A stretch of DNA of 64,000 nucleotides from a virus (Duplodnaviria > Caudoviricetes). Shown here piece by piece: positions 1-63,195 of this stretch. The notes beneath the pieces are model-generated. The model had not been told where the DNA came from, did not search any database, and was given only the letters and a program-made list of their open reading frames with translations. The DNA is taken from IMG/VR virus record IMGVR_UViG_2687453420_000002, positions 35,126-99,125 of that record. One strand, given 5' to 3'. The position numbers and the translations under genes were made by a program. Numbering within the stretch: position 1 is the stretch's first letter; each line of letters starts with the position of its first letter.

Positions 1-242
1 CCTAAAAAGAAACGTGCCTGCTTATGAATTAATGGTTTTATTTTATTATCTATAACTTGTGAAGGAATGTAATCCAAATCATCAGCATTTATCCAACTTT
101 GACCTAATAGAATTTCATCTAACAAAGCTTTATCTTTATCAGTTACTGCACCATGATAAAAATAATAATTAGTCTTAATTTTTTCTAATTCCTTCTTTTG
201 CTCGTTGGTAAACTTTAATAAGGTTTGCTTTATATCTTCCAT
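1..242 (-). CDS. Portal protein of phage A, 5' part (runs off the window)
   Basis: ATG overlaps terL stop; manual translation [10 protein letters not shown]...NKIKPLIHKQARFFL resembles portal B (NKVKPLLKKQARWMF). Confidence 0.8.
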   Translation of the reverse strand, partial: MEDIKQTLLKFTNEQKKELEKIKTNYYFYHGAVTDKDKALLDEILLGQSWINADDLDYIPSQVIDNKIKPLIHKQARFFL

Positions 243-1699
243 TAAAACACCTTTTCTCCTTTCTTTTTATATTGTTTAAGATTATTATTCTTAAGTCCTA
301 TACCTTTGTTGTATACTTCTTTGTTATAAGTAACAGTTCTATCATAGAATGTTAATACAACTGCATCCGCTCTATCCGGAGAAGTTAAGCCTCTTTCTTT
401 CATATCTTTCTTACTTTCTAAAGCTATTTTCCCTCTACTTGTAATTCTATATTTTCTAGTAGATAGCTGGCTTATTAATTTTTCATCTTCTGGAAGTTGT
501 ATTTTACGTGTCTCATTTCGCATATAAGCTGAGAAGTTTTCTTCAAGTATGTCTTTAACTTCTCCCCAAGTACATGCTCCTAAGTTTTCAAAATGTTCAT
601 CATATGAAGCACTACCATTATTTACTGGAATAACTTCTATAGGTAGGTTTTGTTCCTTTACTACTTCTTTTAATCTATCTGTTACCCCTCCACCTACTCC
701 AGTATCATCTATCTTAGCTTTACACTTTTTTAATGAAGGAAACTTTTCCATATATTCTTTAAATGTAGTAATTACGTATCCTACTGTAGTCATTGTATCT
801 TGTTTACTATAACAATTAAGTTTAAATACTTTATCACCTATTCTTGGAGCTATAACAGTTTCATCATCACCAAATCTAGATACATCCACACCCAAATGAA
901 GAATATCACCTACTGGATCTAATATAAATTTAGTAGCAAGTTCTGCATATTCTAAAGATATAAATGTATCAAGTTCCCCTTTAGGAAATTCGCCTAAAAC
1001 TCTTACCCTATAAACATCACTATTCTCATGGTATTTCTCCTTAAGCATTTCAATGTTTTCTTTTGAAGTTCTAGGACTGTCCAAGCTACTAACTTTATGT
1101 GTTTTGTAGTGAGATCTATCTCTATTATGACTATCATAAAAAACTCCACTTGTTTTATTTGGGTTTCCACACATTAAGAGTTTATTTTCTGCTCCTGATA
1201 AAGTACCAAGTATAGCTTCCATAATAGGATCAGCAACACCAGAAGCTTCATCAACTATAAAAAGCATATAATCTTCATGGAATCCTTGCATATTCTCTGG
1301 CTTTGTTGCAGTTTTAGCAGTAGCAAACCATCTTTCCTCTTCACCAATCATATATATTTTAGTCTTGGTCCATTTAAGAAAATCTTTAACTTTGCTTTTG
1401 TTAAGCCATTTAGCAACCTCTGCCCAAAGTACATCATATAATTGCTGCATTGTTGGGGCTGTTGCCACTACTTTAGGAAATGGTCTACAACATAAAAACC
1501 AAATAATAATAGCAGCTTCCAGACCTGTCTTTCCTACTCCTTGACCACTTCTTACTGATACTTTAGAACTATTAGCTATATCCATCATTACTTTAGATTG
1601 CCATTCATCAGGGTGAAAATCTAACATATCTTCAGCAAAAGCTACTGGATTATCCCAATAAATATCTAATAACTCAACAAATATATTAGAATCATCCAT
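242..1699 (-). CDS. terL: Terminase large subunit (phage A)
   Basis: Walker A SGQGVGKT, Walker B FIVDEA, nuclease motifs [10 protein letters not shown] and SPDRADA. Confidence 0.92.
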
Positions 1700-2387
1700 T
1701 TGAATTCACCTCAGATTGCTGCTTCTTCTTTTCTCTACGTTTAGCAATCTCCTGAATAGCTGATTTCCAATCCTTAATTCCAGCCTTAGATTTTTCTTTA
1801 TCTAATCCTTCTAATTCTAAATAGTTTTTAACTAAACTTCTTAACTCTGATATAGCTCTACTTTGAGCATTAAGAAAAGTAGCCTGTCTATCCCATGCAA
1901 ATTGAAATTCATATTCTACTTCTTTTGATGAGCTTTTATCGCCCCATGAATCTTTTGTCTTTTTCAATTCCTTTATCATTTCTTCTTTTTCTGTTACATA
2001 CATAATTCTTTGAGATCTTACTATTGCTGCATACTGTATCATTATTTGATCCCATAATATATCTAAAGGTTTCTTAGTCTCTATTTCTTCCATTATCCCT
2101 AAAGTTTCCTCCGGTAAATACTTAGAGAAAAATCCATGTTTCTCCGCATTCTTATTCTTTGCTGGAGCTCCATGTCCTACTGCATTCTTATTATTTAAGG
2201 GTGCACCCTTTTTATTTTTGTGTGCACCCTTCTGTTTTTTCTCTTCTGACCAACCATATCTTTTCACCCAAGACTTAATTGTATTTAAACTAACTGAATA
2301 CTTTTTAGCTAAGTCTTTATATTTCATACCTTTAAGATAATCTTTCTTAGCCTGTTCTTTAGTATCTGGTCCTCTTATACTTTCCAT
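1692..2387 (-). CDS. terS: Terminase small subunit (phage A)
   Basis: N-terminal HTH ([14 protein letters not shown]), GAPxxNKNA repeats, upstream of terL. Confidence 0.88.
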
Positions 2388-3133: not shown

Positions 3134-3194
3134 ATACACAATATTATATTATCAATATTTTTCCTCTAAATATATTTATTTTAATATTTAGCGT

Positions 3195-3632
3195 TTATTC
3201 TAAAACTGTTGGTTTTATTTTCTCTTGTCCTCTTAATACCTGAAGTGCTTCTGCTACCTTTCTAGCAAAGTTTAAAGGTCTATCTATTGATTCAAAGTGA
3301 ATATACATAAGTCTTGGATCATCAAATAACCAATGATTATGAAGTGCAGTAACTAATATTCCATTTTCTCTTAAAATAGATATAAAATCATTTATTTCTT
3401 CTTGAAGAATAACTGTTTCACCTAAATTAAGAGTTCTACCTGCATTATCAGGAGCCTCAAATGAAAACATCGCCATTAAAGCTAATGGTGAATGAGTTCG
3501 TCTCCTCAATATTTCTGCATCAATATCTCTAATAAACATTACTGTACAAACATTATCAGCTGTACTTAGAATTTCAGCTCCAAGTATATCAGCAAACTTT
3601 GCACAGGTTCTACAAAAATCTCTCATAATCAT
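3195..3632 (-). CDS. DUF1259 (LppY/LpqO-like) protein, moron
   Basis: GETVILQEEIN and VTALHNHWLFDDPRLMYIH motifs. Confidence 0.8.
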   Translation of the reverse strand: MIMRDFCRTCAKFADILGAEILSTADNVCTVMFIRDIDAEILRRRTHSPLALMAMFSFEAPDNAGRTLNLGETVILQEEINDFISILRENGILVTALHNHWLFDDPRLMYIHFESIDRPLNFARKVAEALQVLRGQEKIKPTVLE

Positions 3633-5122: not shown

Positions 5123-5310
5123 ACCGCCTTCACCTTCCTAATTTCTTTTCCTTTTAGGTTGTAGACTATTCCATGTTGAAAATCTATCTTTGCTTTTATT
5201 CTTTTTCTGCCTCTCTTTAAAATGCATGGATAAGTTATTGTATAATTTTCCTCAAATAGCTTTAGTTCCCCATTAAAGTACTTGTCCAATTTATTTCTCC
5301 ATGCTTCCAT
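5119..5310 (-). CDS. Hypothetical protein
   Basis: RBS; homolog at 61769. Confidence 0.7.
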   Translation of the reverse strand: MEAWRNKLDKYFNGELKLFEENYTITYPCILKRGRKRIKAKIDFQHGIVYNLKGKEIRKVKAV

Positions 5311-5399
5311 GATTAATCCCTCCTTTGTATTATTGTTTTAATACTCTAGTACAGTTAAGGTGCAGAAATGCATAGTTTAATCCCTACACCTATTTAGTT

Positions 5400-5626
5400 T
5401 TAAAACTGTCTTTTCCAAATAACTCTTATATTCTTATATTTTTCTTGTAGTTTTTCAAATAATTCAGTTACTTGTAATCCAGTATTTCTCCATTACAGAA
5501 CCAAACTCCATACTCACTATCTTTACTAGGCTTTCTATATCTTAATTGGAGCTTTTTATCATCACATTGTAAGTTAACATTGCAATGTGTCATTAGCACT
5601 AAATAAACATTATCTCTTTTCGCCAC
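5400..5626 (-). pseudogene. Small hypothetical gene with a 1-bp frameshift
   Basis: RBS then GTG MAKRDNVYL...; adding one A near 5486 extends the frame to ...IRVIWKRQF. Confidence 0.5.
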
Positions 5627-5702
5627 TATTTTCCCTCCTTACTTTTAACCCCTAATACTCTTTTTCTGCTTTCTCTATTTCTTTTGCAAGTTCTGGATTA
5701 TT

Positions 5703-6698
5703 TTAAGATATTTTCTTATATTCATGTTTTATGTTTTCTTCTGATAATTCTGCATATATCTGTGTAGTCGCAGGATTTTCATGCCCCATAAGATGTTGTA
5801 TAACCGGCAATGGCATACCTGCATTTAGTTTGCTGGTAGCAAAAGAATGTCTAAATAAATGAGGATAAATAGATTTGTTTATGCCTGCTCTATCCGCAAT
5901 TTTTTTAATCTCTCTTTGAACACTTCTACCACCCAATCTATTATGTGGACTTTTTGAAGTAACAAATAATGCTTCATTATTATCTTTTCTTCTATTTAAA
6001 TATTTTTTCAAATATATTTTGGTTTTAATATTAAAATAAACCTTGCGTTCTTTATCACCCTTACCTATTACATTTAAAGACATTTCATACCAGTTTATGT
6101 CATCTTTATTTACTCCAACCACCTCTGATAATCTGCACCCAGTAGATATTAAAAATTCTACTAGTGCCTTTTCTCTATCTGTTTTAGAAGCCTGCCTTAA
6201 AAGTTCTACTTCCTCTTCTGTCATAGCATGTCTTAATCTCTTTGGTTCTTTAGTTTGTTTTAGCTTCTTTGCTGGATTTTTAGGTATATACTCTTCATCT
6301 GCAAGCCAACCAAAGAAACTTTTTAGTATAGAGATTTGTCCATTTACACTAGTTGCTCTCATGTTCTTGCATCTAACCGCTAAGAACATTCTTAAATCCA
6401 TAGTAGTAATAGTTCCCAGTGGTTTTCTTAAGTGATCTGCAAATATTGCTAAATTATATTGATAGTTTTTTAATGTTTTTAAGCTTAAGCCATCCAGCTT
6501 CTTAGATGCTAAGTATATTTGTAATTTTTCTTCTATATCACTTGTTACTAGACCTGTCTCCTCTGGCAATACACGGTATTTATACAATACTTCTTCTGCT
6601 ATAGTTCTAACCTTCCGCTGGTCTATTTCTGGAAATTCTAAAGATAGCTTGCCCACTAATTTAATTACAACTTCTTCTTTACTACTTGAACTGTACAT
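5703..6698 (-). CDS. XerC/D-like tyrosine recombinase (phage A)
   Basis: Catalytic residues present: TGCRLSE, GKGDK, HLFRH, MGH, TTQIY. Confidence 0.93.
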   Translation of the reverse strand: MYSSSSKEEVVIKLVGKLSLEFPEIDQRKVRTIAEEVLYKYRVLPEETGLVTSDIEEKLQIYLASKKLDGLSLKTLKNYQYNLAIFADHLRKPLGTITTMDLRMFLAVRCKNMRATSVNGQISILKSFFGWLADEEYIPKNPAKKLKQTKEPKRLRHAMTEEEVELLRQASKTDREKALVEFLISTGCRLSEVVGVNKDDINWYEMSLNVIGKGDKERKVYFNIKTKIYLKKYLNRRKDNNEALFVTSKSPHNRLGGRSVQREIKKIADRAGINKSIYPHLFRHSFATSKLNAGMPLPVIQHLMGHENPATTQIYAELSEENIKHEYKKIS

Positions 6699-6805
6699 AT
6701 AAATACCTCCTTGTATATTGCCATTAAGTCCAGTTTAATTTTTATTTATATCCTGGATCTAATCTTTATTTCTGGACCTTATATTTGCAACGCGATATTA
6801 AAAAC

Positions 6806-6982
6806 TTAATCTTCTAATATAAAACATATAGGATCACCATGTTTATGTTTAACATCACTAGGGCAAATCAAAGCTTTCCTATTTACTATTCCTTCATTTA
6901 TAAATTCAATAGTTTTCTTTTTATATGGACATGTATATCTTCCATTTTTAAGCTCCATATATTTGCAAATGTACTTTAGCAT
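6806..6982 (-). CDS. 58-aa hypothetical protein (not in ORF track)
   Basis: AAGGAGG RBS; MLKYICKYMELKNGRYTCPY... Confidence 0.6.
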   Translation of the reverse strand: MLKYICKYMELKNGRYTCPYKKKTIEFINEGIVNRKALICPSDVKHKHGDPICFILED

Positions 6983-7013
6983 AAATTCCTCCTTAATATC
7001 TTTGAATTGCCAA

Positions 7014-7829
7014 CTAAACCATTCTTTCTTCTGACTTTTTATATATTTGTTTTACTTCTGATTTAGGTATTTTCACATAATGTTTTCTAAATAACATTTT
7101 TTCTTCTTCATCTTCTGGCTCATAAATATCAAAATTTTTACCTCTGACTTTTTGCTTATGCATAGTGTAAAAATCACCTTTATCAGCATAACCTTCTAAT
7201 GGATTTTCATTTCTATCATCCCAACTATGATCAAATTCAACTATTTCTCCATCATTGAATTCCATATACCATTTATGGAGTGTATGTTTAAATTTTCTTA
7301 TTTCACATTGAATTAAAGAGTTATAGTCCTTAAAATATTCTTCTGTATAGCCATAATACAATCTACAAAGGCTATCACAATATCTAATCCACATTTCATT
7401 ATCACCAAAATTAGGCATCCAATATTCTTCAACATTTGGATTAAACCCTGGAACTTCACCATCAATAGAATATTTTAAATACATTTTTAAAATATATCTT
7501 GATTTATCTGCACAACATGCCGAACCTTCTCTTAATTCACATAAATTTCTTATATGATTTTCTAAGAAACTATAATTTACATAAATAAAATTAGGTTTAT
7601 TTTTATCTTTACAAATAGATGGTTCATGCAATGTACTTGCTAATAGTTTCATACCTTTTTTCAATCTATAATTGATAAAGCAATCAAAATATTCAGGATT
7701 GTTTATTTTAACCTTACTTTCTTTTGCATGATTAATCGCTTCTCCAAATATATTTATTGTTTCCTCTTCCGATTTTGCGTTTAATGCATCAAATAAACTT
7801 GTAAGGCATTTAGTCATTTCAGTATCCAT
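7014..7829 (-). CDS. Hypothetical protein
   Basis: 271-aa ORF with RBS; no family recognised. Confidence 0.75.
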   Translation of the reverse strand: MDTEMTKCLTSLFDALNAKSEEETINIFGEAINHAKESKVKINNPEYFDCFINYRLKKGMKLLASTLHEPSICKDKNKPNFIYVNYSFLENHIRNLCELREGSACCADKSRYILKMYLKYSIDGEVPGFNPNVEEYWMPNFGDNEMWIRYCDSLCRLYYGYTEEYFKDYNSLIQCEIRKFKHTLHKWYMEFNDGEIVEFDHSWDDRNENPLEGYADKGDFYTMHKQKVRGKNFDIYEPEDEEEKMLFRKHYVKIPKSEVKQIYKKSEERMV

Positions 7830-7884
7830 AATTTCACTCCTTCACATTAATTTCAGCTCCTGCGGCTGCTCTTTGAATTGTGAC

Positions 7885-8100
7885 TTATTTAGTGATGACA
7901 ACATCTAATCCAATACTGACAACACTCTTTATTATGTTATTAATGTTTTTATCTATATTATCAACATTCATAGTGATTTCGTCTAATACTTCATTATCTT
8001 TCAAATTATTTTCTTGCCCTACTGCATTGAATAATTCTTGTGCATCTTTTTTATTTAGTTGTAAACTGCTAAAGTCTATTAATATTTTCATTTTCTCCAT
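7885..8100 (-). CDS. Hypothetical protein
   Basis: AGGAGG RBS; 71 aa. Confidence 0.6.
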   Translation of the reverse strand: MEKMKILIDFSSLQLNKKDAQELFNAVGQENNLKDNEVLDEITMNVDNIDKNINNIIKSVVSIGLDVVITK

Positions 8101-8146
8101 CCTCCTAATGCTTTGTACTTATTTCTGAATTACGTCATATTGCAAT

Positions 8147-8953
8147 TTAAACTATAGATAACTGTTCACATTCAGCTTTATTTTTTATTAGCATTTGCTC
8201 TTGCGCTTTTTTATAAAATTCTTTAGATACTTCAAATCCGTAACTACTTCTATTTAGTTCCATACAAGCCCTTAATGTACTTCCACTCCCTGCCACGGGG
8301 TCTATTACAACATCCCCTTCATCAGTAAAAATTTCTATAAGTTGCTTTAATAAAGCTATTGGTTTTTGTGTAGGATGAACTTTTGGATATTCTTTTTTAC
8401 TATCGCGTTTCCACTCAAACCAATTAAAAATCATTTTCCCTTTTCCTGTTTCTTTTTTACCATTGTTAAACTTAGGTAATTTATCTCTATATAATACGAC
8501 TGCATGTTCCGTAGCTCCAACTATTTTCATATTTGCCTTTAATACCTGTGCTGAATAATTTTTAATAAAGAATAATGGATAACTGTTTTTAAACCCATGC
8601 TTTTTACCATATTCAATAACTGTAGGAATTTGTTCAAAAGAACAAAATACAATCATAGCAGGTGCTTTTCCTCTTTCTTTTGGCTCTTTTATTAATAATC
8701 TGTTACAAAAATGAAAGTATTCAGCTATGTTAAAATTCTCATCTGTATTAAAGAATGTCTTTCCAGCTTTCTTACTTTCTCCATTCTTGTTATTTCCTCC
8801 TATATACCATTCTGGATTACTTCCATATGCATTCTTTCCTATGTTGTATGGAATATCTGCTATTACTAATTGTGCTTTTGGAATATTGTATCTTTTATAG
8901 TTTTGAAAATTATCATTATATAATTCTGTTTTAATTTTTTTATTATTTTCCAT
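8147..8953 (-). CDS. DNA N6-adenine/N4-cytosine methyltransferase (beta order)
   Basis: DIPY catalytic motif, HPTQKP, DPVAGSGST SAM-binding motif. Confidence 0.9.
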   Translation of the reverse strand: MENNKKIKTELYNDNFQNYKRYNIPKAQLVIADIPYNIGKNAYGSNPEWYIGGNNKNGESKKAGKTFFNTDENFNIAEYFHFCNRLLIKEPKERGKAPAMIVFCSFEQIPTVIEYGKKHGFKNSYPLFFIKNYSAQVLKANMKIVGATEHAVVLYRDKLPKFNNGKKETGKGKMIFNWFEWKRDSKKEYPKVHPTQKPIALLKQLIEIFTDEGDVVIDPVAGSGSTLRACMELNRSSYGFEVSKEFYKKAQEQMLIKNKAECEQLSIV

Positions 8954-9212
8954 TGTTCTTGTTCCTCCTCGTCAGGAGGCACGGCCGTGCTTTTTATCTA
9001 GAATTACTCCATTTTATTTTTTAAAATTTAGTTCGTCCAATTTTCATTCTTAGACCTATTTTTGAAATACGGCTATTGAATTTTCTAAATCATCTTTGCT
9101 TATTTTTGATATATTAATTACTGTCCTATATTTTTGTATATAATTTGTTAAATGACTATATTTATTGAATAAAAAAGCATCCAGTGCAAACAATATAAAA
9201 GGGTGATAAATT

Positions 9213-9365
9213 ATGATAGTATCTTTTAAAAGAAATCTAGGAAATACTGATAGAACAGTAAGAATAATATTAGGTTCATTGCTTTTAGTAGAAGGAATAC
9301 TTGGTTACTGAATTATTTTAGATATGCTAGGTTGGTCAACCTATAAATCTGAAAATAAAGGTTAA
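9213..9365 (+). CDS. DUF2892/YgaP-like small membrane protein, probable selenoprotein (TGA at 9309-9311)
   Basis: KRNLGNTDRTVRIILG...GILGY[TGA]IILDMLGWST; TGA at the family's conserved Cys; SECIS-like hairpin follows. Confidence 0.65.
9313..9358 (+). promoter_or_regulatory. Bacterial SECIS-like stem-loop
   Basis: TAGGTT-GGTC-AACCTA on lower stem TTATTTTAGAT/ATCT(G)AAAATAA; loop starts 22 nt after the TGA. Confidence 0.6.
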
Positions 9366-9586
9366 ATAATCGTCCATTTCTAGTATTTTTTATTAAGCAA
9401 TTTTTGTTATCCAAGCACTATCTCTAATGTATTTGTTAGTGTATAACCATGAACACCAATAAATGTAAAACAAATTTATTTGCTAACATCACATTATTCA
9501 AATTTCAAAGAACATTATCCTTATCTGCATTTTCAAGAGTTACGTCGCTTTAATTTCAAATTATCCCTCCAATATTAGTATTTCTA

Positions 9587-9739
9587 TTATTCTTCTCTAT
9601 CGCTTAAACACTCTTCACAAAACCCAAGATGCTCAAGATAACAATCTTTACAAAGCGTTACCTCGCATATATCACAACTAAATTGGTCATACACTGCTAA
9701 TGTATTATCAATTTCTTTTCCACAATCCCAACAAATCAT
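9587..9739 (-). CDS. 50-aa Cys-rich zinc-finger-like protein (not in ORF track)
   Basis: GGAGG RBS; four CxxC motifs (CWDC, CDIC, CKDC, CEEC). Confidence 0.65.
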   Translation of the reverse strand: MICWDCGKEIDNTLAVYDQFSCDICEVTLCKDCYLEHLGFCEECLSDREE

Positions 9740-10130: not shown

Positions 10131-10535
10131 TTAATCCCTTACCAACTCTGGGGTTTCATATATATTTCCTTTTACTCTTAAGTAGTTGCATTCTCCCCAA
10201 AGGCTTTTAGCTCTGCACTCTTCCTCGTTATCTACCCATCATGCACCCTCATGAAAAACTACCACTCCGTCTAATGGCTCTTCATTACTAATTAACATGT
10301 TTTCAATATGAACTATATCTCCCTCAAAGATTTCTTTTCCATTTCTATCCTTTACACCTGTAGAAAATATAGGCTTTATATGTTTTGAGTATTCTGTTCC
10401 TTCCCATTCAACACAATCATTCTCCTCTGATTCATGGTAAATTAATTGTGAAACCTCTCCATTACAACCAATTGCAAAGCTTGAAGTATTTTCATACATG
10501 ATCTTGTTTTTCATGTCCCAAAATTTTATATTCAT
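10131..10535 (-). pseudogene. YopX-family protein interrupted by an in-frame TGA (10239-10241)
   Basis: STGVKDRNGKEIFEGDIV motif; frame continues to the typical VKGNIYETPELV end. Confidence 0.8.
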
Positions 10536-10801
10536 ATGCTCCCCTCCATACATTCAATTTTTTCTTGCAACTCTTTTAATCTATTCATTTTTTCCTCATA
10601 AGCTTGAGTTTCTTCTTGGATTTTTTTATTGATAACAGAATTAATACATACTAAAAACTTTTTAGATGGCTGTTTACCTTCTTCTATATTCTTAAATGCA
10701 TTGTGGATCCCTTGCTTTGTATATCCAGTTAACTTTTCAATTTCTACACCCTTTAAACCAATCTCTTTTCTAAAATCAGAATAGCTTTTCACTCTCGCCA
10801 C
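10532..10801 (-). CDS. HTH-like protein
   Basis: EIEKLTGYTKQGIH followed by a coiled coil. Confidence 0.6.
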   Translation of the reverse strand: MARVKSYSDFRKEIGLKGVEIEKLTGYTKQGIHNAFKNIEEGKQPSKKFLVCINSVINKKIQEETQAYEEKMNRLKELQEKIECMEGSI

Positions 10802-11260: not shown

Positions 11261-11662
11261 CTAAACTTCTTCTAAAACAAGCTCTACTCTTGATTCTTCT
11301 CCATACCATTTTTCAATCCAGCAATCTACTATTTGTTTATCATCATCATAAGCAATAGCATTTAAGCTATCTAAGATTATTTTGGCTATATTATCCACAT
11401 CAGGCTTCTTAGTAGGTCTTATATTACCTTTTATCATTTCTTCTCTTTTCTTCTTACTAATACTTTTAGGTATTGAATAAAAAACTTTCATATCTGCTCT
11501 TATTGGGCCTTCTAATCTTTTTTTATCCTTAGTTAATAGATAACATTCCTTTACCCAATTCTCATACTCTATTGTCTTTTTAGGTGTATATGCTACACCA
11601 GTTTTAGTACTCATTCTTGGTCTAGCTTTACCTTTTGGTTCTCCTGGTATAATTATTTTCAA
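11261..11662 (-). CDS. rusA: RusA-family Holliday junction resolvase
   Basis: GKARPR and KKPDVDNIAKIILDSLN.IAYDDDKQI. Confidence 0.9.
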   Translation of the reverse strand: MKIIIPGEPKGKARPRMSTKTGVAYTPKKTIEYENWVKECYLLTKDKKRLEGPIRADMKVFYSIPKSISKKKREEMIKGNIRPTKKPDVDNIAKIILDSLNAIAYDDDKQIVDCWIEKWYGEESRVELVLEEV

Positions 11663-22861: not shown

Positions 22862-23113
22862 ATGAAGCATAAAATAAATGTCGAAGAATATAGAAATAAA
22901 AATTTTATAAGTCAGAATAAACTTGCTAAAAAAATTAATATTAGCCAAAGTTATCTTTCTTCTGTAGAAAGAGAAATAAAAAGTCCTACATTGAGAATGT
23001 TGTATCGTATTGCAGAAGAATTAGATGTTTGCCCTCGATTGCTAATTAAATGTACAATAGAATGTAGTGAATGTAAAAAACAATACAAATGTATTTGTGA
23101 GGGGGAAGACTAA
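22862..23113 (+). CDS. XRE HTH protein with Cys-rich tail, coupled to the integrase
   Basis: SQNKLAKKINISQSYLSSVE; stop overlaps the integrase ATG. Confidence 0.8.
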   Translation: MKHKINVEEYRNKNFISQNKLAKKINISQSYLSSVEREIKSPTLRMLYRIAEELDVCPRLLIKCTIECSECKKQYKCICEGED

Positions 23114-24732
23114 TGAAGGCAGGAATTTACAGCAGAAAATCAATGTTCACAGGTAAAGGTGACTCTGTAGAAAATCAAGTCCAAATGTGTAAAGATTATG
23201 GAAACAGATTAAATGTAGATGAATATTTAATATATGAGGATGAAGGGTATTCAGGAGGTAATATTAATAGGCCTAAATTTCAAGAGTTATTACAAGATGT
23301 TAAAAAGAAAAAGTTTGACGTGCTTATATGTTATAGATTAGACCGTATAAGTAGAAATGTAGCAGACTTCTCTTCTACTCTTGAACTACTTCAAGACAAT
23401 AATATAAGTTTTGTAAGCATAAAAGAACAGTTTGATACTTCTACACCGATGGGTAAAGCTATGGTTTATATAGCTTCTGTTTTTGCACAGTTAGAACGTG
23501 AAACCATTGCTGAACGTGTAAGAGATAATATGTTAGAACTCGCTAAATCTGGAAGATGGTTAGGTGGTCAAACTCCTTTAGGATTTGAATCTGAAAAAAT
23601 ATCTTATTTTGATGCAGAAATGAAAGAAAGAACTATGTATAAACTTTCTCCTGAACCTAAAGAACTAGAATTAGTTAAATTAATTTATAATAAATACTTA
23701 GAAACTGGATCTATACACCTAACATTAAAATATTTATTATCTAATAATATAAAAGGTAAAAATGGTGGAGAATTTGCATCCATGTCTATAAATGATATAT
23801 TAAGGAATCCTGTATATGCTAAATCTAATGAAATGGTACTTAATTATCTTGAAGATAAAGGCATGAATATATGTGGTACCGCTAATGGAAATGGTATCTT
23901 AATATATAACAAAAGAAACTCTAAGTATAAGAAAAAAAGTGTAAATGAGTGGATAGCTGCAGTTAGTAAACACAAAGGAATTATACCTGCTAATACATGG
24001 CTAGAAGTTCAAAAAACTCTAGATAAAAATTCTAAAAAAGATACTCCAAGACAAGGAACATCTAAAAAGGCATTATTATCTGGAGTTTTAAAATGCAGTA
24101 GATGCGGTGCTCCTATGCGAGTTACTTATGGCAGGAAAAGAAAAGATGGCACTTCCATATATTATTATACATGTACTATGAAAGCTCATAGTGGCAAAAC
24201 TAGGTGTGATAATCCTAATGTACGCGGGGACTATTTAGAAAAAAACATTATTACAGAATTAAAAAACTTAAATTCTGATGTAGTCATTAAAGGGCTTGAA
24301 GAACATAAAAAACAACTAGCTGCAACAACAGAAAATTCAATTATAAAAAATATTTCTAAAGAAATAGAAGAAAAAAAGAAAGAAATGGATTCTTTGATTA
24401 ATAAACTTTCTAAAATAGAAAGTGATATAGCATCTGAATTTGTATTATCTAAAGTAGATTCTTTAGGAAAAGAAATTAAAGAATTGGAAGTTAATTTATT
24501 AAAAAGAACCGATAAGAAAAAAGAAAACTGTGATATTGAACTTAATATTGAAATAGTGTTGCAAGCAATAAAAGAATTTAATGATTTTTTCAATAGTGTT
24601 GAGAGTTTTAAAGATGATGAATTAACTATACAAAGGAAAAGATATCTTCTTGAAAGAGCTGTAGATGAAATTAGAATAGATGGAGAAACTAATAGAATAG
24701 ATATTGATTTATGGAGGGCTAAAAAAAAATAG
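23113..24732 (+). CDS. Large serine integrase
   Basis: YSRKS catalytic Ser, YRLDRISR, recombinase domain, zinc ribbon CSRCG...YYYTC, coiled coil. Confidence 0.95.
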   Translation: MKAGIYSRKSMFTGKGDSVENQVQMCKDYGNRLNVDEYLIYEDEGYSGGNINRPKFQELLQDVKKKKFDVLICYRLDRISRNVADFSSTLELLQDNNISFVSIKEQFDTSTPMGKAMVYIASVFAQLERETIAERVRDNMLELAKSGRWLGGQTPLGFESEKISYFDAEMKERTMYKLSPEPKELELVKLIYNKYLETGSIHLTLKYLLSNNIKGKNGGEFASMSINDILRNPVYAKSNEMVLNYLEDKGMNICGTANGNGILIYNKRNSKYKKKSVNEWIAAVSKHKGIIPANTWLEVQKTLDKNSKKDTPRQGTSKKALLSGVLKCSRCGAPMRVTYGRKRKDGTSIYYYTCTMKAHSGKTRCDNPNVRGDYLEKNIITELKNLNSDVVIKGLEEHKKQLAATTENSIIKNISKEIEEKKKEMDSLINKLSKIESDIASEFVLSKVDSLGKEIKELEVNLLKRTDKKKENCDIELNIEIVLQAIKEFNDFFNSVESFKDDELTIQRKRYLLERAVDEIRIDGETNRIDIDLWRAKKK

Positions 24733-30368: not shown

Positions 30369-31493
30369 ATGAATTTAAAATTTAAAAGTGTGTTTTCTAT
30401 TTTTATTACTATAATGATTGTATTCTTATTAAATTCAATAGCATATGCAGAAGATACCAACGGAGTTTCTTCATATACTCCTATTAGAGGAAAAGTTTTA
30501 AAAGTTATAAAAGAATATGATGAAATTCAAGGTCAAGGCAAAGAATCTGAAAAACTTAAAGTGCAAAATTTACAAATTGAAATATTAGAAGGAAAATATA
30601 GAGGTAAGAAAGTATTTATAGATAACCACATATCTACTTCCAAACAAAATGGTACATGCTATGCAAATAACGATGAAGTCCTTTTAATCGTGGAACCTGG
30701 AGAAAAGGGTGAAATATCATCTGTAAGTATTTATCAATTCGCAAGGGACAAGTATTTAAAATATTTTTTAATAAGTTTTTGTATAATAATGGTTTTAATT
30801 GGAAGATGGAAAGGAATAAAATCTTTATTAACCTTAGCTATTACTGTATTTTTTATTGTGAATGTATTCTTAAAATATATTTTAAAGGGATATAATCCAT
30901 TCATGATTTCTATTTTTGTATGTATATGCATTACTACTGTCACTTTCGTAATAGTAAGTGGCATAAACAGAAAAACCATATCTGTTATATTAGGAACTAC
31001 TGGTGGGGTCATGATCGCAGAACTAATAGCTGTCTTTGTAGGTAATTTATGCAAAATAAATGCCATAAGTTCTGAAGAAGCCCAGGTACTTTTATATTCT
31101 AATCTAAATAATCCATTAAATTTTAAAAATATTTTTTTTGCTACAGTACTTATAGGTGCTTTAGGTGCTGTAATGGATGTAAGTATGTCCATATCTTCTT
31201 CTATGAGCGAAATAAGAGAAGCTAATGGAAATATAAGTACTGCAAAATTAATGAAATCAGGCATGAATATAGGAAGAGATATAATGGGCACAATGTCTAA
31301 TACTTTAGTACTTGCCTATGCCAGTGGTGCAACTTTTCTTATTTTAAGTTGTATGGCCAATGGAGTTACTTTATTAGATATGATAAACCAAGATATGATA
31401 ACATGCGAAATAATAAAAACCTTATCTGGTAGTATAGGCTTAATATTCACTATACCCTTTACTGTTATTATAAGTGGTATATTAGATAGATAA
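30369..31493 (+). CDS. YibE/F-family membrane protein, moron
   Basis: IGALGAVMDVSMSISS and GRDIMGTMSNTLVLAY. Confidence 0.88.
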   Translation: MNLKFKSVFSIFITIMIVFLLNSIAYAEDTNGVSSYTPIRGKVLKVIKEYDEIQGQGKESEKLKVQNLQIEILEGKYRGKKVFIDNHISTSKQNGTCYANNDEVLLIVEPGEKGEISSVSIYQFARDKYLKYFLISFCIIMVLIGRWKGIKSLLTLAITVFFIVNVFLKYILKGYNPFMISIFVCICITTVTFVIVSGINRKTISVILGTTGGVMIAELIAVFVGNLCKINAISSEEAQVLLYSNLNNPLNFKNIFFATVLIGALGAVMDVSMSISSSMSEIREANGNISTAKLMKSGMNIGRDIMGTMSNTLVLAYASGATFLILSCMANGVTLLDMINQDMITCEIIKTLSGSIGLIFTIPFTVIISGILDR

Positions 31494-31761
31494 AAATCAA
31501 AAACTTACTTGAATTACATATTAAATTGTGTGCATAATTTAATATGTATTGGTTAATCTTGTTATAAAAATATGTTATACATAAGGTAAAAGGGCTGCAC
31601 CCATTTTTGAGCACAGCCTCTTATTTTAAGTTTTATTTATCAAAATATGTAATATATTTTCATGAACTTAAGCAGAAATTTCTCCATTAATTTATTAATT
31701 GTAGAATCATTTCCTTTTTAAGCTTATACAAATTTAATTATCTATATAATTACTCCTAAAT

Positions 31762-32154
31762 TTAACAAGAAACCCCATCTACCTCATCATTATTTTTTTC
31801 AATAGTAATTATAAGTTTATGGGGAAGGCAAGCTGCTGTTTCCCCAGGTTTTCTCAATACTCCTGATTTTATACAAATCTTATTACGACAATTTGCTTCT
31901 ATAAATCTAATAGATCCCTTATCTACTTCTATAATATTATACCCTCTATAGCTACCTTCACTATAGTTAATTCTGAATTGTCTTTTTTCTTTTACTTTAG
32001 ATAAATCAATTTTTTCTATAATTTTACCATCCTGCTTTATTACAGCTACAGCCTTTTCAGATTTTGAAAAGAATTTAAAGAAAATTACACTTACTATACT
32101 TAAAACCAATAATGTAGTAACTATATACATTACTATTTTATCACCTTTTTTCAT
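31762..32154 (-). CDS. NusG domain II-containing exported protein, moron
   Basis: MKKGD + TM; ANCRNKICIKSG...ACLPHKLII. Confidence 0.85.
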   Translation of the reverse strand: MKKGDKIVMYIVTTLLVLSIVSVIFFKFFSKSEKAVAVIKQDGKIIEKIDLSKVKEKRQFRINYSEGSYRGYNIIEVDKGSIRFIEANCRNKICIKSGVLRKPGETAACLPHKLIITIEKNNDEVDGVSC

Positions 32155-32378
32155 TAGCCCCCTCCTATTAAACTATAAATATAATCAATATATTACATCA
32201 ATCCATATAAAAAATCCATACAAAAAAGAACCCTATTTATTAGGGTTCTTTTCTTAAGCAAGGAGGTTGTCTAAATTATTGGTAAGCCGTTATATTTAAT
32301 ATTCTATAAATATTAAAAAATTCCTTCAAATAATGAAAGAAGATGGTAGCTCCAATTAAGGAACTACCACCTTAAAAT

Positions 32379-32468
32379 CTATTTTAAATTCCTAAATAAA
32401 GCTTTCCATGTTTCTCTTCCTACAATACCATCTGCTGATAGATTATAGTCTACTTGGAATGCTTTTAT
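32379..32468 (-). pseudogene. Relic of an endolysin 3' end
   Basis: Translates IKAFQVDYNLSADGIVGRETWKALFRNLK*. Confidence 0.8.
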
Positions 32469-32471
32469 ACT

Positions 32472-33392
32472 TTAGTTATTATACATTAATTTCCTTATAA
32501 TGTTAATATCTTTTCCTGCCAGTTTAGGTTGTCTAATTTTGGGATATAATTCTTTTAAACGTTCATGAATTTGTTCGTAACTTTTACCATCCTCCATCAT
32601 ATAAGCAACTCTACCTTCTATTTTTCTTATATCCTCAATATCTTCCATACACAAATAATTTCTAACAGTATCAGAATTTTTTAATTGCACTCCTAAAAAG
32701 GCTTCTATTTGTTTAGCAGTCATACCAAATATTATTTTGTAAATGTAGTTAGTTTCTTTGGCGTAAGCGTTTGTCCAAGAATTACTCGGATCATGTTCTA
32801 AATCTCCTCTATCTATAAAATATTTAATAGTGTCAGTAGTGCGTTTTCTTTCTTTCTTTCCTAACAATCGTAACATATACTGTTCTGTATCTTCACTATT
32901 TAATACTAATTCTTTCATTCTAAAATAATCTCTTATTACCCTTTTATAAATTATTTTAGAACGGGTATCCTTCATTAAATTAATTAATAATGAATACCCT
33001 TGCTCAGATAATATATATAAGTTTTTGGCCCTGTTTACAGAATTTTGTGTATATACTTTATTTTTCACTAAATTTCTGATTATTTTTTTGTGGTCGTTTG
33101 AAACGTCCTCGGATTTTAAATCTATAATATCTATGCCGAATTCAAAATAAGTATCTCCACTTTCAAGAATTATATTATTATTTATTAATTCATTAATTCT
33201 TTTTATCTTTGTTTTTATCTCCTCTTTATTATTAGTATTATCAACATGCAATGAGGCTATTTGCGGAACTGTAAGTATTTTTTGGCCCCGTCCAAACCCA
33301 CCATATAACTCCTTTATTTTGATATTAACATCAGCTATTGAAACTTCATTTCCTGTGTATGTTATATCCCATTTCAATTGTTTTCCTTGCAT
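32472..33392 (-). CDS. Antirepressor-like (ORF6N-type) DNA-binding protein, moron
   Basis: GGFGRGQK.L..QIA.LH...INELIN; LYILSEQGYSLLINLM. Confidence 0.7.
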   Translation of the reverse strand: MQGKQLKWDITYTGNEVSIADVNIKIKELYGGFGRGQKILTVPQIASLHVDNTNNKEEIKTKIKRINELINNNIILESGDTYFEFGIDIIDLKSEDVSNDHKKIIRNLVKNKVYTQNSVNRAKNLYILSEQGYSLLINLMKDTRSKIIYKRVIRDYFRMKELVLNSEDTEQYMLRLLGKKERKRTTDTIKYFIDRGDLEHDPSNSWTNAYAKETNYIYKIIFGMTAKQIEAFLGVQLKNSDTVRNYLCMEDIEDIRKIEGRVAYMMEDGKSYEQIHERLKELYPKIRQPKLAGKDINIIRKLMYNN

Positions 33393-40617: not shown

Positions 40618-43600
40618 TTAGGATGTACTAAAATTTAAATTCCTTATCATTACTTCATTTTTTCTCATTACTTCACTTGGGGACAATGCTCTAGGACTAT
40701 TAAACGTAAAATTGTTGTGATTTACTATACTTTTTCTATTATCATTAGAGATTGAACTTCTAGTATTAAATTGCGGCACAGAATTTACAATGGCTCTTTG
40801 ACTAGCCATTGAATTTAAAGCTGAATTTCTAGCAACCTCAAAACTTTCCTGTATACTAGCTATCATATCCTTAAGTTCCTCTATTTTAGGCTTAAAGCCC
40901 TCTACAAGTTTTTCTCCAAGACTTTGTCCTGCTTGCTCATAAGCTCCCTCATAAGAATGTAGCAACTTGATAATATCCTTTTGATTATTATCCATTATCA
41001 TTTGTTCAGCTTGAGCGTGAAGAGCTGCATTTTTAGTCATCTCCTCATAAGTTTCTCTATGTTTTTTCAGTTGTTTTTCTAAGCTATCTTTCTGACTTTC
41101 ATATATAGAATTAATATTTTTTAATTCATTTTCTTTTTCTTTCTGTAGCTGCTCTTTTTGTTCTTCTAGTTGTTCTTTATGAATCCTTTTTTCTCTCTCT
41201 TTAAGAAGATTATTAAGTTCTTTTTGGATTTCTGCCTTGTTGAATTCGTTATGCTCATATCTTAAGGAGGCTTCAAGCTGATTTATCTTTTTTAGTTCTT
41301 CTGCATCCCTATCAGCTTTATCTTCTTCTATTAACTGTTTGTCTATAGCTTCAATTTTAGCATCATAAACAGAATTTATTCTATCTATAGATTCATCTTT
41401 CCATCTATCTAAATTTTTAAGCTCATTATTTATGTGATCTTCTTGTGCCTTTAGTTCATCTTCGTATCGTTGCTTTAATGCTGACTTAATTCTATCAACC
41501 ATATTATTAATACTATCAGATACTTTTTTATCTACTTCCCTTTGAGCATCTATAATCTTTTGTTTTGCATCATCTACAGCACTACTCATGTTAATTAGTT
41601 CAGTTTTAGCTTCTTCTAACGACTTTTTAATCTTTACAGTTTCCTCTGATGTATGCCCAAAAGTCTCTGCTAATTCTTTATATCTATTTTCAAGTTCTTT
41701 TATTTTTTCGCCTTGAAGGATGACTATTGCTTGATGGTTTAATAAATTTTTATTTAAATCTTTAGTATCAATTTGTAACCTTTTTATAGCTTCATTATAT
41801 TCATTTATTGTATTGTTAAATATATTTTCCTGTACTTTAAGAGATTTTTTCACTTCTTTTTCTCTTTTATCTAATAAATTTAATCCATCTTTATAATACT
41901 CTTCTAGTGCTTTCTTAGACCTTTCTAAGCTATCTACCTGTGCCTTTTGATTCGCTTTAGTAGTATTTAATACCTGTTTTTGATATTGTCTTAGAGCAGC
42001 TATTTGATTAGCATAATTAGCCTTAGCATTTTTATCTTTAGTACTTCTTTGTAGCTTTTGATAGTAAGCTATTTGAGAATCTATCCTTGATTTTTCTGTT
42101 TGTAGCTCTATACTATTTTCATTTTTAAGAATTCTTAGCCTATCTTCTATGCTCTTAGATCTATTATCATAATCCTCCTTCAAATATTCCTTACTTTTTT
42201 CAATTTCTTCTTTATTTAATCGATCTATGAACTCCAAATACCTCTGATATTCCTTTTTACTATTAGCTCCCCAATTTAGCTGTCTTGCTAATCTATCTTT
42301 CATTACACTTTCTGACACACCAGTTCTAGGGCTAACAGATACACTCTCTTTAGCTTGTGATAGGGTTTCTCTTGCAATATCTTCAGGTTTATTATTATTA
42401 TTCTCTAATAATGATGCTAGTATCTTTTTAGATTCTCGATTATTAAATACTTTTTCTCCACCGTTAAATAATCTATACTGCCTAGATGCTACTATTTCAA
42501 AACCGTCCTCAGCGACCTCATGTAGTCCTGCTTCTGCAAAATCTGTACCCGCAGCATACCCTTTCTGGTTTTTCACTTGTTTTTTAGACAATCTTTCTTT
42601 CATAGAGTTTGATTGTGTATTATTGAATATTTTAGTCCCCTGAGGCAAATCTACTAGTTTAGGTCCTCTTCCTGGCAATTGTATTAATTCGCTACCATCT
42701 TCATCAACCCAAGTTAAACCACCTTCAAAATAGCTTGTTCCTGTCCATTTTTGTGGCACATCGGGAACAAAAGGTTGATTTGGATGAATAACTTGTTGAA
42801 CTACACTAGCGATAAAAGGATGTTTGCTTAACCAGCTTTGTGCATTAGAATGTGCATCCCTTATCCAATCGAAAAGATTATAATTTATTTTAGATTGTGC
42901 TTTTACAGGATTTTCATATATGTTCTTATGAGGTTCTTTATATTTATCTTCAATTTTTTGAAAAGGAACACCATTTTTTAAATCCTTATCTATATCTTCT
43001 CTAGCTTTTACAGGATTGCCATATATCTGATTAGTGCCTCTATCCCATGCACCTACTATTTTCCCTGTAGTATTGTCAATTTCAATGTAACAATCATGCA
43101 TTTGTCCTGTTGCTCTGTCCTTAATACTATAATATCCACTAGTTGTAATTTCTTTTAATCCGTTCATTTTAGATAAATAAGTATTCATTTCAAGTGTTTT
43201 TTGTTGTTCTTGTTTATTTAGCATAGTGCCATTATGCAAATCTAAATAATTTAATATTTGTCCATTTTTTTCTATTGCTGCATCCAAGAACCCTTGATAC
43301 TTTTCATTCTCTACACCTATTTCTTTTTCTTTTGCACCTTCTAATTGTTTTATTTTATCCTCAATTAACTTTTGTGTTTCCTTATCAGCATCTTTAGAAT
43401 ACAATTTTAAATATTCTATTTGTTTATCATAATTTTCTTTTGTTTTCTTTATTTCTTCATCTCTAGCTTTTGCCTTTGATTCCATCAACTTAGATAATCC
43501 TTCCATATCTAAGTTTTTCATGCGAGCATTAAAATCCGCTTGAGCTGCTAAAAGTTCTTCTTTAGATTTAACAGTATTTTTCATTTCTATATTTCCAATT

Positions 43601-61960: not shown

Positions 61961-62051
61961 GATTAACCCTCCCTTATACTATTGTTTTATTACACTAGTA
62001 CAGTTAAAGTATAGAAATACTCACTTTAATCCCTACACCTATTTAATTTTA

Positions 62052-63047
62052 TTAAGATATTTTTTTATATTCATGTTTTATATTTTCTTCTGATAATTCT
62101 GCATATATCTGTGTGGTCGCCGGATTGTCATGACCCATGAGATGTTGTATAACTGGCAATGGCATACCTGCATTTAGTTTGCTAGTAGCAAAAGAATGTC
62201 TAAATAAATGAGGGTAAATAGATTTGTTTATGCCTGCTCTCTCCGCGATTTTTTTAATTTCTCTTTGAATACTTCTTCCACCTAACCTTGCATAAGATGT
62301 TCTAGATGTAACAAACAGTGCTTCATTATTATCTTTTCTTCTATTTAAATATTTTTTCAAATATATTTTAGTTTTAATATTAAAATAAACTTTACGTTCT
62401 TTATCACCCTTACCTATTACATTTAAAGACATTTCATTCCAATTTATATCATCTTTATTTACTCCAACCACCTCTGATAATCTGCACCCAGTAGATATCA
62501 GAAATTCCACTAGTGCCTTTTCTCTATCTGTTTTAGAAGCCTGCCTTAAAAGTTCTACTTCCTCTTCTGTCATAGCATGTCTTAATCGTTTGGGTTCTTT
62601 AGTTTGTTTTAGCTTCTTCGCTGGATTTTTAGGTATATACTCTTCATCTGCAAGCCAACCAAAGAAACTTTTTAATATAGAGATTTGTCCATTAACACTG
62701 CTTTGTTTCATGCTTTTGCATCTAACTGCTAAAAACATTCTTAGATCCATTGTATTTATAGCTACTATAGGTTTTCTTAAGTGACTTGCAAATATCAAAA
62801 GGTTATATTCATAATTCTTTAATGTCTTTTTACTAAGCCCATCCAGCTTTTTAGATGCCAGATATATCTGTAATTTTTCCTCTATATCGCTACTTACAAG
62901 AGCCGTCTCCTCTGGCAATATACTGTATTTATATAACACTTCCTCTGCTATACTTCTAACTTTTAATTGATCTATGTCTGGAAACTCTAAAGATAATTTT
63001 CCAACCAGTTTAATTACAACTTCTTCTTTACTGCTTGAACTATACAT
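62052..63047 (-). CDS. XerC/D-like tyrosine recombinase (phage B)
   Basis: Same catalytic motifs as, and close homolog of, 5703-6698. Confidence 0.93.
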   Translation of the reverse strand: MYSSSSKEEVVIKLVGKLSLEFPDIDQLKVRSIAEEVLYKYSILPEETALVSSDIEEKLQIYLASKKLDGLSKKTLKNYEYNLLIFASHLRKPIVAINTMDLRMFLAVRCKSMKQSSVNGQISILKSFFGWLADEEYIPKNPAKKLKQTKEPKRLRHAMTEEEVELLRQASKTDREKALVEFLISTGCRLSEVVGVNKDDINWNEMSLNVIGKGDKERKVYFNIKTKIYLKKYLNRRKDNNEALFVTSRTSYARLGGRSIQREIKKIAERAGINKSIYPHLFRHSFATSKLNAGMPLPVIQHLMGHDNPATTQIYAELSEENIKHEYKKIS

Positions 63048-63195
63048 ATAAATACCTCCTTGTATATTGCCATTAAAGGCAGTTTAGTTTTTATTTATAT
63101 CCTGGATCTAATTTTTGAAATACAACGTAAAAAATTATAAAATTGGCTTTTGAAGTAGTACGGTAGTTTAATAAATTATTTCCACTTTCTTTTTA

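Follow-up and report, generated by a model that had tools for sequence, protein, structure and literature searches.

A small gene at 9213-9365 on the plus strand of the window (here and below, the whole 64,000-nucleotide stretch of viral DNA that was analysed) is, with a probability that we put at roughly 0.86, an intact selenoprotein gene whose in-frame UGA at codon 33 would be decoded as selenocysteine (Sec). An initial annotation of the sequence had proposed a 50-residue Sec-containing membrane peptide, and this proposal is supported by: 1) a match to the family profile PF11127; 2) conservation of the TGA; 3) a hairpin downstream of it; and 4) Sec machinery in genomes that carry the gene. 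Host SelB and Sec-tRNA(Sec) would decode the UGA at 9309-9311, directed by a Sec insertion sequence (SECIS) hairpin with a core at 9328-9343 that is extended in the window copy to 9316-9354, and the codons of a conserved G-W-S-T motif would themselves form that hairpin. The window copy would come from a derived clade that lost some 26-29 internal residues, leaving one hydrophobic segment that encloses the Sec, and the gene would be a moron on a cassette of about 0.5 kb, opposed to the phage genes, in a temperate Clostridium phage whose replication genes lie on one side of it and whose methylase lies on the other. That Sec is really inserted, that the lysogen expresses the gene and what the protein does are what we infer from these data.

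An in-frame UGA on a conserved cysteine column

The gene and its immediate signals are as follows:

9213-9365, plus strand: putative Sec-containing DUF2892/YgaP-like_TM gene of 50 residues, short single-segment form, TAA stop at 9363-9365 included
9309-9311, plus strand: UGA codon 33, inferred Sec (Cys in aligned relatives; TGA in 55 of 55 pattern-matching rows)
9198-9206, plus strand: Shine-Dalgarno-like AAAGGGTGA, 6 nt 5' of the ATG, read from the sequence and identical in L001, L002 and L007

The reading frame consists of 32 residues, the TGA, 17 further residues and a TAA, and translation of 9213-9368 with TGA as U gives MIVSFKRNLGNTDRTVRIILGSLLLVEGILGY-U-IILDMLGWSTYKSENKG-stop. A list of open reading frames (ORFs) under standard table 11 holds only the 32-residue stub at 9213-9311, and public records likewise annotate the gene as a 32-residue protein only (stubs P0002-P0004). 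Translation and folding confirm the initial description of an unlisted plus-strand ORF with a TGA and, 22 nt later, a GGUC hairpin. Correct as it is, that description taken alone is only mildly unusual: a 17-codon open frame after a stop is not rare in DNA of 28-30% GC, so the weight of the case comes from homology. The product has one hydrophobic segment on the Kyte-Doolittle scale (best 19-residue stretch at residues 18-36, mean 2.38), flanked by an N-terminal tail of net charge +3 and a C-terminal tail of +1, with Sec33 inside the segment, between E27 and D37.

With the TGA read as Cys, the read-through product matches PF11127 (YgaP-like_TM, formerly DUF2892; a profile of 66 positions with a gathering cut-off of 25.3 bits) at 35.5 bits and E 1.1e-8. 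The match falls in two stretches, the best at profile positions 2-22 of 66, and the middle of the profile is absent. The window protein thus does not span the whole profile with two helices, both of which are present in the full-length Sec members L003 and L019; alignments make it about 26-29 residues shorter internally than full-length members, in keeping with the shortening that had been suspected. With a full-length relative as query, phmmer found 78 matches among 1.84 billion representatives, and in an alignment of 41 rows most have G-Y-C-x-x-Y-D-x-L-G-W-S-T opposite G-Y-[TGA]-I-I-L-D-M-L-G-W-S-T in the window; Ser stands there in two rows, and the database proteins P0005, P0008, P0052 and P0082 terminate exactly at ...G-Y. 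Across the alignments Cys stands opposite the TGA in P0006, P0013, P0015, P0017, P0023, L018 and others. Twenty Cys-type DUF2892 genes of Clostridia genomes have Cys in the same column. The conserved Cys that follows G-[FWY] near the C-terminus of the family is therefore the position at which the window has UGA, and alignment to Cys-type relatives bears out the earlier placement of the TGA on it. NCBIfam assigned the window product, L019 and P0006 to none of its families, and its matches for L003 (E 0.19) and P0017 (E 0.055) were discarded as unrelated families far below cut-off. A word-indexed protein search with L003 returned only its own truncated record.

The same column bears on a further possibility: an alternative code or leaky read-through might place a standard amino acid, Trp or Gly, at the UGA instead of Sec. 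Two database proteins (P0001 and P0021) have W at the Sec position; P0001, however, equals the L007/L008 product except for W where the DNA has TGA, so its W most likely comes from a gene-caller table in which TGA is Trp. Both W-containing versions are most likely TGA=Trp gene calls on short AT-rich contigs. In the record TGA is an ordinary stop, ending 10 of the 59 ORFs of 150 residues or more, and it also terminates several of the family's own ORFs; relatives have Cys rather than Trp at the column, and a SelB-type hairpin is conserved. Decoding as Trp or Gly is accordingly extremely improbable.

Conservation of the UGA and of the frame beyond it

All eight aligned close copies, that of the window and seven others (from five IMG/VR proviruses, a Clostridiaceae metagenome-assembled genome (MAG) and C. 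ljungdahlii ERI-2), retain both the TGA and the downstream frame. A full-length, two-helix version from a Syntrophomonadaceae MAG (L003), 41% identical, has TGA at the same place and ends ...L-L-V-E-G-I-L-G-Y-U-I-G-Y-D-L-L-G-W-S-T-Y-R-K-R-K-K, and a third version (L019), in Clostridia genome G375, reads ...E-G-A-I-G-Y-U-V-F-L-D-I-L-G-W-S-T. JGI metagenome contigs were searched with the degenerate DNA pattern GAR GSN N6 GGN TAY TGH N9 GAY N6 GGN TGG WSN AC, in which H permits TGA, TGC or TGT. This codon-neutral pattern found at least 50 metagenome loci, with TGA in 50 of the 50 listed, and altogether TGA occupies the position in 55 of 55 matching rows; in IMG/VR it returned only the five proviruses already known.

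In every pattern row the frame stays open after the TGA and ends in a short tail that is mostly basic. Averaged over columns, the entropy at codon positions 1, 2 and 3 is 1.17, 0.51 and 1.74 bits at codons +1 to +3 after the TGA, and 1.75, 0.32 and 1.27 bits at codons +5 and +6, with the free codons encoding I, L, V, F, M or Y. Second codon positions being the least variable and the frames open, the region evolves as translated sequence. The candidate Sec subfamily can be described by the motif E-[GA]-x-x-G-Y-U-x3-D-x2-G-W-S-T, and it appears to be large. The alternation of TGA and Cys among homologs for which the initial annotation called was found, with UGA orthologs in other organisms and several Cys homologs. 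Close homologs with TGT or TGC and no hairpin, which it had named as evidence of one more nonsense lesion, did not emerge: TGA is present in every relative with readable DNA.

A conserved hairpin within the coding sequence

In bacteria, according to the available text of PMC1088965, the SECIS element follows the UGA immediately, and its small apical loop contains a G. The corresponding features in the window are:

9328-9343, plus strand: conserved core of the putative SECIS, a 6-bp stem (9328-9333 with 9338-9343) and loop GGUC (9334-9337), overlapping the L-G-W-S-T-Y codons
9316-9354, plus strand: extension of the hairpin specific to the window copy, with lower stem UUUUAGAU / AUCUGAAA, from folding of the 54 nt that start at the TGA

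These 54 nt fold into the hairpin 9316-9354, with the GGUC loop starting 22 nt after the A of the TGA and a minimum free energy of -11.2 kcal/mol (z = -2.55; 2 of 200 dinucleotide shuffles fold equally well). A longer stretch of 101 nt adopts a different and unremarkable fold (z -1.27). The lower stem differs in L019 (UUUUUGGA/UCCGGAAA) and is only weak in L003.

What is shared across the sampled subfamily is the core, whose 6-bp stem begins 16 nt after the UGA. Among 48 distinct sequences, the third base of the Gly codon is T in 44, the Ser codon is TCA in 47, and the third base of the Thr codon is C in 46 and T in two, so that the near-frozen sites spell GGUU-GGUC-AACC. Pair 21-34, formed by the wobble position of the Leu/Met codon and position 1 of the codon following Thr, covaries among these sequences (GC in 30, AU in 11, GU in five, unpaired in two). 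Over the 6-bp stem 93.8% of the 288 cells are paired; in 500 column shuffles neither this percentage nor the covariation score was ever attained, and sliding the 3' partners by 1-3 columns leaves 14-58% paired. In the Cys-type control only 36 of 90 cells (40%) are paired at the same columns, against 93.8%, the control comprising 15 regular-expression matches in 14 of the 20 loci, with six loci missed by the expression and one match spurious. The closest Cys homolog with G-W-S-T (L018) has GGA TGG TCA ACG and no such hairpin. Covariation, a further check proposed at the outset, was thus found in a GGUC-loop hairpin conserved across the 48 sequences. Searches of 9150-9450 against Rfam at permissive thresholds gave only chance-level matches of the snoRNA and CRISPR type, all with E above 1, and were set aside.

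Selenocysteine machinery in carriers and likely hosts

Three genomes that carry the gene (G001, G002 and G003) each have selB, selA and a tRNA-Sec (anticodon tca, above the Rfam cut-off), and G375 has selB, which makes selB present in four of four carrier genomes tested and selA with tRNA-Sec in three of three. In G310, which carries a Cys homolog, selB was not found at E<=1e-60. The provirus record that holds the window (G000, 99,125 bases) contains no tRNA-Sec, and the window contains no tRNA gene of any kind, so the phage depends on its host for Sec. As for that host, the replication module matches 90 deposited records, 58 of them Clostridium phages, with C. sporogenes ATCC 15579 as host in 29, and the database twin of the 32-residue stub is labelled C. 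botulinum. The available text of PMC4517662 describes a selABC-trnU cluster and Sec-containing Stickland reductases in C. sporogenes DSM 795 and C. botulinum ATCC 3502. The call to confirm selABCD in the host has therefore been answered in part: carriers have selB and, where tested, selA and tRNA-Sec, and that source attests selABC-trnU in species that are likely hosts.

The distribution of selB helps in judging another possibility, namely that the UGA is a true stop, that the product has 32 residues, and that conservation downstream reflects an RNA element such as an attenuator, a stabiliser or a small RNA target. The most conserved downstream stretch, GGTTGGTCAACC, is indeed conserved at the nucleotide level, and RNA contigs (described below) extend some 200 nt beyond the ORF. 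Yet in the codons that separate the TGA from the hairpin third positions are the most variable and second positions the least, only hydrophobic residues are encoded there, the frame is open to the basic tail in every pattern row, Cys-type homologs read through the same column into D-x2-G-W-S-T, and selB occurs in the TGA carriers and was not found in the one Cys carrier tested (G310). Termination at the UGA is, on this evidence, very improbable.

Origin and selection of the short form

Eight distinct sequences have 48-54 residues: the window/L064 pair, L001, L002, L054, L069, L075 and L091; a partial short form (L068) and a short database protein (P0021) come in addition. A maximum-likelihood tree of short and full forms (48 rows, 79 columns, many forks open) places the eight in a single clade (support 95/94) that also includes the full-length L019 on a long branch, and the deletion may have had a single origin. 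Between divergent short forms the ratio of nonsynonymous to synonymous substitution (dN/dS) is 0.15-0.30 on the upstream side of the TGA and 0.04-0.47 on the downstream side, which indicates that the short forms are under purifying selection on both. The differences upstream of the TGA among the window, L001 and L002, too few for interpretation, are all nonsynonymous, which simple purifying selection would not predict and which is odd beside that among more distant short forms.

These results count against the early suspicion that the shortened gene may be a relic, and against the related idea that the TGA is a nonsense lesion in what is left of a Cys-type DUF2892 gene that the phage acquired and that is decaying after an internal deletion. 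Such a remnant would account for the missing middle of the Pfam profile, for public annotations that stop at 32 residues, and for phage copies that have lost the post-stop hairpin and T-run of L001 and L002. It would not readily account for a TGA, frame and downstream peptide kept in 55 of 55 rows, including full-length forms at 41% identity, for a single clade of short forms with dN/dS well below 1 on either side of the TGA, or for synonymous sites frozen exactly at the positions that the hairpin requires. We regard a nonsense lesion as very improbable.

Weighing the selenoprotein reading

Several observations weigh against reading the gene as an intact selenoprotein gene. Firstly, the metagenome pattern required G-W-S-T and E-[GA]-x-x-G-Y and hence sampled one subfamily, and no TGC or TGT match occurred among the pattern loci, which leaves the H position with no positive control. 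Secondly, the long lower stem of the window hairpin is not conserved by position in relatives, and L001 and L002 break one of its pairs (A-U to A-C); RNAalifold recovers only the inner three of the six core pairs; many of the 48 sequences are related, so that the shuffle statistics overstate independence; and no Rfam family matches the hairpin. Thirdly, the window, L001 and L002 differ from one another upstream of the TGA (9213-9308) by 3-6 nonsynonymous and no synonymous changes, albeit in small numbers. Fourthly, the Sec competence of the window's own host rests on relatives and one paper. Fifthly, the RNA contigs described below show neither strand nor level and could stem from DNA carry-over, and a promoter scan gives only a 9-of-12 site (9106-9134) and no terminator-like site. 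Finally, neighbours of the metagenome and genome copies are too varied for any one function (DUF4491, Rce1-like, YccF, Fic, TrpA, hydrogenase, macro domain and others).

Prophage setting and mobility of the cassette

The window comprises two adjacent related prophages, with the small gene in the left one, where, the serine integrase aside, it is the only plus-strand gene in an otherwise minus-strand run. Its surroundings are:

242-2387, minus strand: terminase, left of the gene
3195-3632, minus strand: DUF1259 (PF07485) protein, in the left prophage, flanked by the recombinase/regulator genes and the small terminase
5703-6698 (within 5697-6767), minus strand: tyrosine recombinase, left of the gene
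8147-8953, minus strand: N6/N4 methylase, left of the gene
9055-9563, plus strand: cassette of about 0.5 kb carrying the gene, from blastn against related proviruses with different flanks
9385-9470, strand not assigned: conserved non-coding block downstream of the gene, shared by the window, L007, L001 and L002 although wider flanks differ
10239-10553, minus strand: YopX, right of the gene
11261-11662, minus strand: RusA, right of the gene
Right of the gene, minus strand: sigma factor, DnaB, DnaD, Gam and anti-repressor, part of the gene neighbourhood
23113-24732, plus strand: serine integrase, right of the gene

The limits of the cassette come from blastn, in which L007, L008 and L009 match the window from 9055, 9058 or 9059 to 9558-9563 at 98.6-98.8% and L005 matches 8126-9563 at 99.8%; the block, which recurs in five other proviruses, is 98.6-99.8% identical in four of differing flanks. 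The suggestion of an inverted cassette in a prophage holds good, the gene lying on the opposite strand in a block that is mosaic between related proviruses. In L007 and L009 the cassette lies some 25-175 bp from tyrosine-recombinase homology; in the window the methylase and another ORF lie between the two. More diverged copies of the cassette (about 79% over roughly 9101/9167-9464/9469) occur at two non-phage chromosomal sites: that in the Clostridiaceae MAG (L001) adjoins a heavy-metal P-type ATPase, FeoC, Fur and FeoB, and that in C. ljungdahlii (L002) follows etfA/fixC/fixX near a TnsA-like fragment. Repeats around the cassette were considered as element ends and rejected, being short and AT-rich (at best 15 nt at 80%, 9064-9078 with 9570-9584). 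The gene is sporadic, in one of 20 genomes in the genus of G002 and in two of 392 scored in the family of G001 (nine further candidates unscored). Among deposited phages there was no blastn match to 8950-9600 and, in 50,697 records, no tblastn match to the 50-residue product.

Downstream of the gene, L001 and L002 (at about 3160-3230 of each) have a 46-nt insertion after the stop that completes a long, terminator-like hairpin with a T-run, of which the phage copies (window 9366-9385) keep only the 5' arm. The block at 9385-9470 has no significant fold (z -0.03), no Rfam match and no clear ORF, and the 205 nt after the gene fold no better than shuffles. A full-length, two-helix DUF2892 gene of the Sec type is also found at 2-337 (minus strand) of a 116-kb metagenome contig (L050), where the gene immediately downstream is that for a phage small terminase (PF10668, E 3.4e-23), and this is, as far as sequence can tell, a second, independent phage association.

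Other observations concern the two prophages themselves. Their tyrosine-recombinase genes (331 residues; 5697-6767 and 62046-63116) are about 89% identical in DNA, and each prophage has a terminase and structural genes. A trio of ORFs of 374, 185 and 306 residues at 30369-33392 has a counterpart of the same sizes at 5261-9337 of G000, on ORF lengths only. The tape-measure gene of the right prophage (40618-46367, minus strand) is split into two overlapping ORFs of 391 and 1540 residues, both of which match tape-measure PHROGs; the split may be a frameshift, either programmed or a lesion.

Expression

Sixteen RNA-library runs contain part of the stretch, and the contigs of four of these, from four studies, were placed on the window. 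Three yielded short contigs of a relative at 95-99% identity, running from 9188, 9189 and 9211 to 9455, 9482 and 9564 and diverging from the window at 9564; the fourth yielded none. The contigs only hint at transcription of the cassette as one unit, some 0.3-0.4 kb long. A TATAAT at 9139-9144, read from the sequence, is common to L002 and absent from L001.

Possible function and wider significance

By analogy with the context of Cys-type DUF2892 members, the protein could tentatively give the lysogen a conversion trait, namely a selenol in the membrane whose targets would be reactive sulfur, thiol-redox or soft-metal species, a guess about which we remain doubtful. In the available text of PMC5358917 a DUF2892 gene of Azospira suillum is among the most abundant transcripts and is induced about 10-fold during H2S oxidation, with a minor effect of deletion, and the available text of PMC6710368 reports an oxidoreductase-trxC-DUF2892 operon in Bradyrhizobium. 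A fixed operon with rhodanese, ArsR or thioredoxin was considered and dropped, there being no recurrent partner next to the metagenome copies, and the window protein probably acts alone.

A further proposal, more speculative and on balance unlikely, is that the one-segment membrane selenoprotein is a lysogenic-conversion gene disseminated on a cassette by temperate phages of Clostridium, with two product states set by the selenium supply of the host. Were this true, the product would be the 50-residue selenol form when charged Sec-tRNA is present and the 32-residue stub otherwise; lysogens would gain a selenium-dependent trait of the membrane, for example the ability to withstand sulfide, reactive sulfur or soft metals or to exclude other phages; and the gene would be a natural bacteriophage-borne selenoprotein of a family missing from current selenoprotein inventories.

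The available text of a 2026 review of the prokaryotic selenoproteome (PMC13188914), which tabulates families by accession, contains neither DUF2892, YgaP nor PF11127; the same three are absent from the text of BSepDB and the available part of its supplement, and DUF2892 and YgaP from the deep-Sep paper. The Haft and Gwadz preprint on new clostridial selenoproteins does not mention the family. Literature searches found no paper that links DUF2892 with selenoproteins (by title and abstract the DUF2892 papers are not on selenium), no relevant paper on YgaP and selenocysteine, none on a GGUC-loop SECIS with SelB and, among the papers listed and as far as their available text goes, no natural phage selenoprotein.

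With at least 50 metagenome loci from one narrow pattern, the data point to what may be a widespread family of small membrane selenoproteins in anaerobes. Annotation routinely cuts selenoprotein genes short. A selenol buried in a membrane segment would extend known chemistry, and the hairpin would add a case in which a SECIS and a conserved peptide motif share the same nucleotides. Carriage on a temperate-phage cassette would make phages a vehicle by which selenoprotein genes pass from one Sec-competent host to another, a point of importance for the annotation of phage genomes and the interpretation of metagenomes from gut and digesters.

Comparison with known systems

The kind of gene is already known, namely a bacterial-type selenoprotein gene with a SECIS inside the ORF; its unusual points are the one-segment membrane form, the SECIS that doubles as a conserved peptide motif, and carriage on a temperate-phage cassette. 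Membrane selenoproteins already catalogued (MerT-like PF02411, YeeE/YedE PF04143 and the SO_0444 Cu/Zn efflux family NF033936) likewise have Sec in or near membrane segments and are tied to metal or sulfur handling, but belong to unrelated families, are far larger, and are not described as phage-borne in the available text of PMC13188914.

The Cys-type PF11127 proteins (P0017, P0006 and L018) share with the window protein the family, the N-terminal K/R-N-x-G-x-x-D-R and the C-terminal G-[FWY]-C...G-x-S-T, and the C-terminus of P0017, EGILGYCIVMDMLGWSTY, is nearly identical to that of the window. They differ in having Cys where the window has UGA with a SECIS hairpin within the G-W-S-T codons, and in the two helices of the family where the window protein has one hydrophobic segment. 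In YgaP two helices are fused to a rhodanese. The transmembrane domain of E. coli YgaP (PDB 2mpn) is the sole solved structure touched by the family profile; the match, which takes in its second helix as far as G-F-x, is weak (E 0.14, 15.4 bits), and the deposited chain has Ser at the aligned position.

The SECIS of E. coli fdhF has the loop GGUC, and SelB binds its upper stem-loop. Bacterial SECIS elements within ORFs, of which fdhF is the prototype, resemble the window hairpin in lying just 3' of the UGA and in their small, G-containing apical loop, according to the available text of PMC1088965. Compared with elements of the fdhF type, the putative SECIS of the window matches no Rfam model, conserves only its 6-bp apical stem and loop at a fixed spacing of 16 nt, and has a core that doubles as the coding sequence for L-G-W-S-T-Y.

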